From NCBI GenBank assembly GCA_008632985.1, contig QPGO01000024.1, forward strand, positions 372,001-436,000: a DNA stretch of 64,000 nucleotides. The letters are read 5' to 3'. Position numbers and translations under genes: made by a program. The stretch's first letter is position 1, and each line of letters opens with the position of its first letter. Shown here piece by piece: positions 61,915 through 63,116 of this stretch. Source of the stretch: Psammoneis japonica. Taxonomy: Eukaryota. A model generated the notes under the pieces. That model ran no database searches and had not been told where the DNA came from. It saw only the letters and a program-made list of their open reading frames with translations.

Positions 61915-63116
61915 AAATGAATGCTGCGGTGTCTTTTTCACTCACCCCAGAGAAAGCATTGCTCATCACTGTGAGCGCAATCCAGATGACCCTCGCATTG
62001 CTCATCAGATGACTCTGGAAGTGGATGAATTTGGCAATGCATTGAAGTCAGTGGCGATCGCCCATCCCCGCAGGACTCCCAAATTTTCCGAACAAAGCCA
62101 ACCTCTGGTTGCTTGTGCAGAAAACAGAGCAACCAATGAACCTGATGAAGATGATTGGTGTCGCCTTGGAGCACCGATAGAAATGATTGCTTGTGAAATT
62201 ACAGGATCACCTGTTGCCAATCTCTGCACCTTAGAGGAAGTCCGAGAACAGTTGGCAAATGCCAGTGTTCTTGCTTGTGGAGCAAATCAGACTGCTGGAG
62301 CTTTACAAAAAAGGACAACGGAGCAGATTGGAAACTGTTGCCGTGCTGACAGTCAGACAAATGGCACAGATCCAGATCGTTCAAACTTGGGTGAAGTAGA
62401 ATCACCAGCTCTTCCTTGTGAAAGCTTCAAGTTGGCCTTTGCTCCTGGGCCAATTAACTCAACATGTGGCAGCAAGATTGGGACTGGGGAATTGAACAAT
62501 CAGCTAAGTCAAGAAGGCAAGCATGTTCAACTCGATGGAGATTGGTGGATTCCTTCTGGGCGACAAGCATTCGACCCCGCTCAGTTTTACCTGGTGAGTC
62601 AAATTAAAGATCCTTTTGAGCAAATTTGTGAAACGACTTGCGATTTTTATAGTTTGTCAACTGCTCAGACAGTCGATCCCCTGGGAAATGCGGTTCGCGT
62701 GCGCAACAATTGCCGAACTCTCCAGCCAGAGGAAATCACTGACCCCAACGGCAATCGCGCTCAAGCGGCTTTTGATGCTCTGGGAATGGTGGCGGGAATG
62801 GCAGCAATGGGTGAAGTGGCACCCTCTCCCCAAGAAGGCGATTCTTTGGAGAGCTTTGCCACAGACCTCACTCAACAACAGATCGATGACTTCTCTCAAA
62901 ATCCTTCATCCGCCGCAAGCACTCTGTCAGGAAATGCCACCACTCAAATAATCTACGATCTAGAAAGGTTTGTCAACACTGGCAAACCTGTCTTTGCAGC
63001 TACTTAGCCAGAGAAATCCACGTCAGTGACCCAGCAGCAGGAGAGCAGTCTAAAATGCAAGTAAATTTTACTCATTCTGATGGGTTTGGTCGAGAAATGC
63101 AGCAAAAAATCCAGCA
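61915..63116 (+). pseudogene. Internal fragment of a bacterial Tc-toxin B/BC-type (TcdB2/SpvB-RHS shell) gene, hypermutated; 1-nt deletion at ~63004
   Basis: VFFTHPRES..ERNPDDPRIAHQMTLEVDEFGN, WWIPSG, DPLGN, ITDPNGNR..AFDALG, EGDSL, ATTQIIYDL, P.FAAT(L)ARE.H, SDGFGRE.Q.K.Q. Confidence 0.88.

Follow-up and report, generated by a model that had tools for sequence, protein, structure and literature searches.

The right-hand end of a 64,000-nucleotide stretch of the Psammoneis japonica genome (GenBank assembly GCA_008632985.1, contig QPGO01000024.1, positions 372,001 to 436,000; the whole stretch is called the window below) carries a fragment of a bacterial toxin-complex B (TcB/SpvB) gene at 61915..63116 on the plus strand, in which TA dinucleotides have almost disappeared. 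The locus raises the question of how bacterial DNA came to lie there and by what kind of change it lost its TA. An earlier reading, made from the sequence alone, had proposed that the fragment records the direction of mutation, namely TA to TG and TA to CA on both strands. From comparisons with bacterial relatives, the composition of the window and a public sequencing run, we consider it highly probable that a bacterial patchwork was integrated in a diatom chromosome and that TpA was then converted to TpG or CpA in a region-limited manner, with CpG decay following more slowly.

Identity of the TcB/SpvB fragment

The fragment consists of the following features.

61915..63116, plus strand: internal fragment of a TcB/SpvB-type (toxin-complex B subunit) gene, cut at both ends; a pseudogene, assigned by Pfam and by its relatives
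61916..63004, plus strand: first reading-frame piece, 363 codons without a stop, assigned by open reading frame (ORF) and Pfam
63005..63007, plus strand: in-frame stop and frame change; a contig built from the public run differs by one base in length here
63007..63116, plus strand: second frame piece of the same gene, 37 codons, aligning with relatives up to about 63113
62054..62061, no strand assigned: HIP1 octamer GCGATCGC, by motif count the only copy in the window

The frame at 61916-63004 (+) matched the Pfam family TcdB_toxin_midC (PF12255) with an E value of 7.6e-14 and 52.3 bits (cut-off 25). Among 1.84 billion representative proteins, 2259 relatives of the fragment were found, the best of which showed 52-54% identity over the whole length, and one 71% over the last 222 residues. 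Relatives of 1400-2600 amino acids aligned across the entire fragment, and in full-length proteins the match began near residue 900-1000. The fragment thus derives from a gene of the SpvB/TcaC/TcdB type, as indicated by both the TcdB_toxin_midC match and the annotation of relatives as 'SpvB/TcaC N-terminal domain-containing protein'.

A full TcB subunit consists of an SpvB N-terminal domain, propeller repeats, a middle/N region and a complete shell. Only an internal part of this architecture is present, namely positions 49-104 of midC and the next ~340 residues (about 400 internal codons in all), and the DNA on both sides is unrelated. Unlike TcB genes, the fragment is cut at both ends, its frame is broken by the stop and frame change at 63005-63007, and many conserved residues are replaced. 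The frame break itself may be allelic or an assembly error, because the run contig has a one-base length difference there. The fragment is a fossil without a function of its own, not a toxin gene.

The best named relative is encoded on a plasmid of the cyanobacterium Allocoleopsis franciscana PCC 7113 (45% identity) and carries the SpvB/TcaC annotation given above; other named matches had 35% identity or less. The G + C content of the close relatives is cyanobacterium-like. The HIP1 octamer is reported to mark cyanobacteria (PMC4390886), and a relative found in metagenomes (L002, below) has five copies in 3.9 kb. Because a single copy is roughly what chance predicts for 64 kb, the HIP1 argument rests on L002 and not on the copy in the window. 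Taken together, these matches make a cyanobacterial donor of the TcB fragment likely.

Direction and context of the substitutions

For the protein comparison, 31 relatives were aligned over the region of the fragment. Tyr made up 0.83% of the fragment against a mean of 4.81% in the relatives (minimum 2.93%), and Cys 4.13% against a mean of 0.46% (maximum 2.43%). The sequence-only reading had described a 332-residue ORF as poor in Tyr and rich in Cys, and ORF 62009-63007 indeed contains 3 Tyr beside 12 Cys. Tyr is the consensus residue at 17 columns; the window has it at 3 of them and shows Cys at 9, His at 3 and Phe at 2, whereas no single relative among the 31 has Cys at more than one or His at more than two of them. 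The motif differences that had been listed against a family consensus agreed with these real alignments, and the closest relatives do not themselves carry Cys or His at the Tyr-consensus columns. The relatives define 212 consensus columns, and the window departs from them at 65, among which are 14 of the 17 Tyr columns. Among these 65, 24 are reachable by one transition in an ancestral TA (14 to TG and 10 to CA) and 5 via an ancestral CG, and each of the other dinucleotide classes explains at most 11. When only columns with a consensus of at least 80% were considered, 13 of the 17 differing columns were of the TA type and 3 of the CG type.

We also compared the fragment with its relatives codon by codon. 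A metagenome scan with an alignment of four relatives gave the DNA sequences L002-L006, which cover residues 39-363 of the fragment (97-363 in L005), have 62-70% protein identity to it, and over the aligned stretch show a G + C content of 42-47% and a TA observed/expected ratio of 0.85-0.92; a scan of genome contigs gave a single distant relative (L001, 33%). The 363-codon frame of the window has observed/expected ratios of 0.21 for TA, 1.54 for TG and 1.30 for CA. All five relatives share 31 TA dinucleotides, of which the window keeps only 2, with TG at 18 and CA at 8. As controls, each relative was treated likewise against the other four; each kept 25-29 of 28-37 conserved TA, or 141 of 165 when pooled (Fisher p = 7e-18 against 2 of 31 in the window). 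Relatives therefore carry TA where the window has TG or CA, which is the direction that had been read from the sequence alone.

The change is specific to TA. Other dinucleotides conserved in the five relatives were kept in the window at 55-92% (CG at 16 of 20), and CG was replaced by TG or CA at 1 of the 20 conserved CG of the fragment. A>G on either strand was counted by the preceding base at sites identical in the five relatives: it was found at 42 of 62 sites after T but at only 11 of 311 after the other three bases (A, 2 of 106; C, 5 of 111; G, 4 of 94). In the controls, A>G after T occurred at 0-5 of 80-94 sites. The TA-type changes were distributed over codon positions 1, 2 and 3 as 8:13:7, as expected without selection. 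Outside TA contexts, 52 of 659 sites differ in the window; the controls show 17-65 such differences. The codon alignment that had been suggested as a check of the earlier proposal thus yielded an excess confined to ancestral TA, with both products and regardless of codon position. A near-complete purge of TA with little other change points to a fast and specific process rather than to slow drift.

The fragment contains 19 TA and 37 CG in 1202 bases (observed/expected 0.23 and 0.54), in agreement with the earlier remark that many CpG and some TA remain. Since TA is ~90% purged while 16 of 20 conserved CG are kept, the two losses are separable, and TA was lost first. The earlier view that the purge has been caught mid-way was right and can be refined: the TA purge is about 90% complete and CpG loss has barely begun.

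Islands of TA loss in the window

The long ORFs of the window are eukaryotic and comprise Josephin/UBX, TatD, autophagy E2-like and exportin-7 proteins and a fusion of SET, spermine synthase and AdoMet decarboxylase. The exportin-7 ORF showed 71-83% identity to diatom proteins, with named matches in Cylindrotheca, Nitzschia, Pseudo-nitzschia, Epithemia and Thalassiosira; judged by these matches, the host DNA around the patchwork is diatom nuclear DNA. Over the whole window the TA observed/expected ratio is 0.46, with 0.5-0.9 in genic 2-kb windows, and that of CG is ~1.0 over most of its length. Five bounded islands depart from this composition, at approximately 4500-6500, 13500-21000, 22500-24500, 52500-57000 and from 61000 to the window end. 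In the island cores, TA is found 0-4 times per 500 bases (expected ~25-42) and CG 0-9 times (expected ~22-37), while TG and CA reach ~1.8 times expectation. The old islands have observed/expected ratios of 0.02-0.03 for TA and 0.06-0.13 for CG. The four islands other than that with the fragment are as follows, each described from its dinucleotide counts and with no strand assigned.

4500..6500: TA lost throughout, CG remaining in the leftmost kilobase
13500..21000: largest old island, TA 0-3 and CG 0-9 per 500 bases against 27-42 and 22-36 expected
22500..24500: nearly without TA and CG
52500..57000: nearly without TA and CG; at the edges 52501-53000 and 56501-57000 TA lost and CG kept

TA is lost and CG remains at the edges 4501-5500, 52501-53000 and 56501-57000 and in the whole of the last island (61001-64000). 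These edges, with TA at 1-3 per 500 bases, are in the same state as the bacterial patchwork; CG is near expectation (20-27 per 500 bases) in three of the four edge windows, and 5001-5500 has 10 against 33 expected. The edges may be younger additions beside old islands. No meaningful Pfam match was found in 55 ORFs from the four other islands, and their origin is therefore unreadable. When these ORFs were taken together with 8 from the patchwork (63 in all), two weak, domain-less Pfam matches were obtained, which we took as chance. ORF 52682-53233 gave no match among plasmids.

Inside the largest island, a 196-base satellite at 16869-18785 has 10 tandem copies with 75% matches. Among nine aligned copies, the commonest two-letter disagreement was CA versus TG (four columns), and at one column two copies have CG. 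Such disagreement is expected if an ancestral CG or TA was resolved independently in different copies.

The islands bear on whether an ordinary genome-wide bias of the diatom slowly strips TA from unconstrained DNA without any targeting. TA is in fact mildly low everywhere, as the ratios for the window and its genic parts show. A slow general bias is nevertheless difficult to reconcile with the loss of 29 of 31 conserved TA while other sites stayed within the range seen between relatives and CpG remained largely intact. In addition, host genes and spacers have ordinary TA (0.5-0.9 of expectation), some spacers have it in full (50 TA against an expected 34 at 2501-3000, and 47 against 51 at 21501-22000), and the island borders are sharp at 500-base resolution. 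We regard a genome-wide bias as very unlikely.

The bacterial patchwork and its residence in the genome

The fragment lies in a patchwork of bacterial-type pieces beside a host gene.

59368..60867, minus strand: MatE-type transporter gene of the host, abutting the patchwork; Pfam MatE, normal dinucleotide content
60870..61914, plus strand: piece A, bacterial, upstream sequence followed by some 296 initial codons of a gene for a secreted protein of ~410 amino acids, assigned by its GC profile and relatives
63117..63480, plus strand: piece B, bacterial-type, G + C 68%, with a weak FG-GAP-like repeat match and an internal frame change
63481..64000, no strand assigned: piece C, TA-poor by composition (observed/expected 0.12), running off the window

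The transporter gene matched Pfam MatE at 59926-60306 (E 7.8e-12) and at 60382-60867 (E 2.9e-4; 21.0 bits, below the gathering score of 24.9). In the latter ORF, which is nearest to the junction, the first MatE profile is entered only at position 81, so that the 5' part of the gene is either lost at the insertion or located beyond it. From this arrangement, the patchwork may interrupt the MatE gene or sit in an intron.

Piece A has a G + C content of 71.5% and a third-position GC of 0.91-0.92 in one phase. Its gene starts at 61026 with a signal-peptide-like N-terminus and changes frame near 61200-61225. In an alignment with seven relatives (P0271-P0277, 31-45% identity), it has no Tyr in 204 aligned residues against 2-4 in the relatives, and at the three columns where Tyr is commonest it has Cys (Tyr in 6 of 7 relatives), Cys (3 of 7) and His (4 of 7). 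This is a small, independent repeat of the TA signature. Piece B gave no match in plasmids, in TcB relatives or in piece A, and without a match to TcB relatives it is not a propeller part of the same gene. Piece C holds a Cys-rich ORF at 63543-63998 (-), for which no relatives were found among proteins of near length, phages or a local protein set. Among the eight ORFs of the patchwork, Pfam gave a single sub-threshold match (FG-GAP_3, in piece B).

A public run of the same organism contains 80% of the sampled words of this region, and we built contigs from its k-mers. These contigs bridge the junction at ~60870 (piece 60751-60936), that at 61915 (61861-62259) and those at 63116 and 63480 (62261-64000), with at least 54 bases on both sides of each. 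The depth of the run is 33-64 over the patchwork and 61-122 over the host flank. Two alleles are present at 61773-61890, with depths of 26.6 and 19.3. The bridging contigs, the host-like depth and the two alleles together show that the bacterial DNA is resident in the diatom. The sequence-only reading had likewise argued for residence rather than contamination; its argument gains from the TA-poor signature shared with the other islands, from the bridging of every junction and from the two alleles.

One of the two run alleles carries a 5-base insertion (61847) and three transitions, at 61803, 61829 and 61860, where the window has TG or CA and the run CG. Some run contigs match only up to 60933/60936 and 63430/63466 and then continue in other G + C-rich sequence, which points to a structural variant of the second haplotype, or to related copies at another place or in an associated bacterium.

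The stretch 60900-64000 still contains 27 TA and 236 CG. Within it the window and the run differ at 22 positions, all of them transitions, with 17 between CG and TG or CA, 2 between TA and TG, and 3 others. Some of these can be polarised by the bacterial relatives. At 62848 the run has the ancestral TA and the window TG; one CG was lost in the window (62184) and another in the run (62561). The second TA/TG difference, at 60965 in piece A, cannot be polarised by relatives. The polarised differences place both the TA and the CG changes on the chromosome, after integration. By these counts CpG decay appears to be the change now most active in the patchwork, which fits an order of TA first and CG later.

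These data also bear on three further explanations. The first is that modified TA and CG were miscalled by the sequencing chemistry and that the DNA still contains TA and CG. Both dinucleotides are indeed palindromes of the kind that bear symmetric modifications. A separate run nevertheless reproduces the purged sequence, with 6 differences in the 1.2-kb fragment; 10 of 15 run pieces are at least 99% alike, and a depth of 33-57 implies accurate reads. An ancestral TA is found as TG at some sites and as CA at others, and satellite copies differ as CA versus TG at the same column. In Bigelowiella natans (below), the same spectrum is reported as true de novo mutations in Illumina reads. We hold such an artefact to be highly improbable.

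Contaminant bacterial reads might instead have been joined to diatom DNA by the assembler, the composition being that of an unusual bacterium. Composition does jump abruptly at ~60870, 61915, 63116 and 63480, and the divergence of some run contigs at the positions given above could be taken in the same sense. Against this, k-mer contigs bridge the junctions at host-like depth and with two alleles; three unrelated pieces and the neighbouring piece C share the TA loss of other diatom islands; and a working bacterial gene could not have Cys or His at 12 of 17 conserved Tyr. We give contamination scarcely any credence.

We attach equally little weight to A-to-I editing of double-stranded RNA by an ADAR-like enzyme before reverse transcription and integration. 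ADAR enzymes favor U before the edited A, as noted in a preprint on B. natans (bioRxiv 10.64898/2026.01.13.699255), and both strands are affected here, as they would be in double-stranded RNA. The signature, however, spans unrelated pieces, non-coding upstream bacterial DNA and all junctions; two copies that share these junctions are unequal at two TA/TG sites, an indication of change after integration; and Pfam analysis of the ORFs revealed no retroelement features beside the pieces.

Two other candidates were rejected: conversion of the bisulfite type would strike C everywhere and not A after T, and fungal repeat-induced point mutation (RIP) runs in the wrong direction, since TA is lost and CA/TG gained here.

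Proposed course of events

In the explanation that we favor, integration of a patchwork followed by regional TpA conversion, unrelated bacterial pieces would have integrated at or in the MatE transporter gene of a diatom nuclear chromosome, one of them a ~1.2-kb internal stretch of a TcB/SpvB toxin-complex gene of cyanobacterial type. Once the pieces were integrated, A preceded by T on either strand would have been changed to G within a limited region, turning TpA into TpG or CpA. This conversion would have gone nearly to completion while other sites stayed at about the divergence seen between bacterial relatives. CpG decay to TpG or CpA would proceed more slowly in the same regions and continue at present, and its end state would be the older islands without TA and CG. 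The comparisons demonstrate the TcB/SpvB origin of the fragment and its residence in the host and, for the changes, their direction, their dependence on a preceding T, their presence on both strands, their indifference to codon position, their regional limits, their occurrence after integration and the precedence of TA loss over CG loss. The cause would be an enzyme aimed at silenced or foreign DNA and acting in place, as has been proposed for B. natans. A TpA-acting adenine deaminase appears to be the most likely candidate, and an enzyme that modifies thymine within this palindrome would produce an identical spectrum. Because TpA is palindromic, the spectrum cannot separate an attack on A (deamination to inosine) from an attack on T.

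Several points weigh against this explanation or limit its reach. Strand symmetry is only approximate, with TG exceeding CA about 2:1 in two counts, neither significantly (18:8, p = 0.08; 27:14, p = 0.06). The ancestor is reconstructed from relatives of 62-70% identity and not from the donor itself. The run and the assembly may come from one and the same sample, and no library type is recorded for the run, which makes it less than independent proof. Only two of the differences between window and run are of the TA type, and only one of these is polarised. Finally, the targeting to 'foreign' DNA rests on one window, and the other islands, which have no recognisable content, may be old repeats rather than foreign DNA.

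A wider proposal is that diatoms possess a DNA-level editing defence which, in freshly integrated or silenced DNA, rewrites nearly every TpA to TpG or CpA in little time, before methylation-driven CpG decay and apart from it, that the same defence operates in Rhizaria and is an old mechanism of the SAR (stramenopile, alveolate and rhizarian) lineage, and that the islands are graveyards of foreign DNA with 60870-64000 as a recent burial. We put this forward tentatively, as somewhat short of an even chance.

Relation to known systems

According to the preprint by Mettrop et al. (bioRxiv 10.64898/2026.01.13.699255), the mutation rate of two integrated viral regions in the chlorarachniophyte B. 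natans is raised ~1000-fold; of 231 de novo mutations there, 230 were A>G or T>C, all of them at TpA. The preprint also describes TA-poor, CA + TG-rich clusters elsewhere in the genome and proposes DNA adenine deamination as a defence (bioRxiv 10.64898/2026.01.13.699255). The present case resembles B. natans, where giant-virus and virophage DNA is affected, in the confinement of A>G and T>C changes to TpA, giving TpG and CpA, in the long-term loss of TA and gain of CA + TG, perhaps in a restriction to bounded regions of non-host origin, and in the bacterial-type domains that occur among the TA-poor genes of B. natans. As to bounded non-host DNA, the island studied here consists of bacterial pieces with sharp borders, while the four others are unreadable in origin. 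The two cases differ in that the host here is a diatom, a stramenopile and not a rhizarian, and the target a bacterial patchwork; the purge has gone much further here, the TA observed/expected ratio being 0.45 in the viral region compared with 0.21 in the frame of the fragment and 0.02-0.03 in the old islands; CpG loss follows here, and the terms 'CpG' and 'diatom' do not occur in the text of that preprint as available; and the evidence here is comparative, whereas there it is a mutation-accumulation rate. A raised rate in the diatom is indicated only indirectly, by the near-complete TA loss beside background-level change at other sites and by the two TA/TG differences between window and run.

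RIP in fungi is similar in being regional, in using dinucleotide-specific transitions to inactivate unwanted DNA and in leaving a strong compositional scar. It converts C:G to T:A, for the most part at CpA, and thereby generates TpA, whereas here TpA is destroyed and G + C rises; it also needs duplicated sequence, and the window contains no second copy of the fragment. Decay of CpG through deamination of 5-methylcytosine, as in methylated repeats, would explain the CG>TG/CA half of the old islands and 17 of the 22 differences between window and run. However, it cannot remove TA, and the Tc fragment keeps CG at 16 of 20 sites and TA at 2 of 31.

Our full-text literature search found no report of TpA-specific hypermutation in diatoms. 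As far as that search goes, TpA-specific hypermutation of foreign DNA has been described once before, in 2026, in an unrelated alga, the chlorarachniophyte discussed above. Its signature is now seen in a diatom as well, which suggests a process widespread among marine protists. New in the present case is that the change is polarised by living bacterial relatives, is nearly complete and is ordered before CpG decay. Because diatoms are transformable and open to knock-out, the mechanism is directly testable. For annotation, TA-free ORFs in diatom assemblies that are rich in Cys and His and lack Tyr are fossils and not genes, and the scar separates resident bacterial-looking DNA from contamination. 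TA-rich transgenes may risk being rewritten.

Other features of the window

The segment 46001-47000 has a G + C content of 56-60% with TA at 3-5 per 500 bases and CG kept; it is part of a 383-codon ORF with 125-base tandem repeats (46421-46802) and without a Pfam match. It may belong to the coding DNA of the host or be a further scarred piece. Coding repeats of 21 bases are present at 44616-44940, as seven overlapping 90-base copies, in an ORF likewise without a Pfam match. At 40078-43398 on the minus strand, a single ORF of 1107 codons combines SET, Agenet, spermine/spermidine synthase and S-adenosylmethionine decarboxylase domains.

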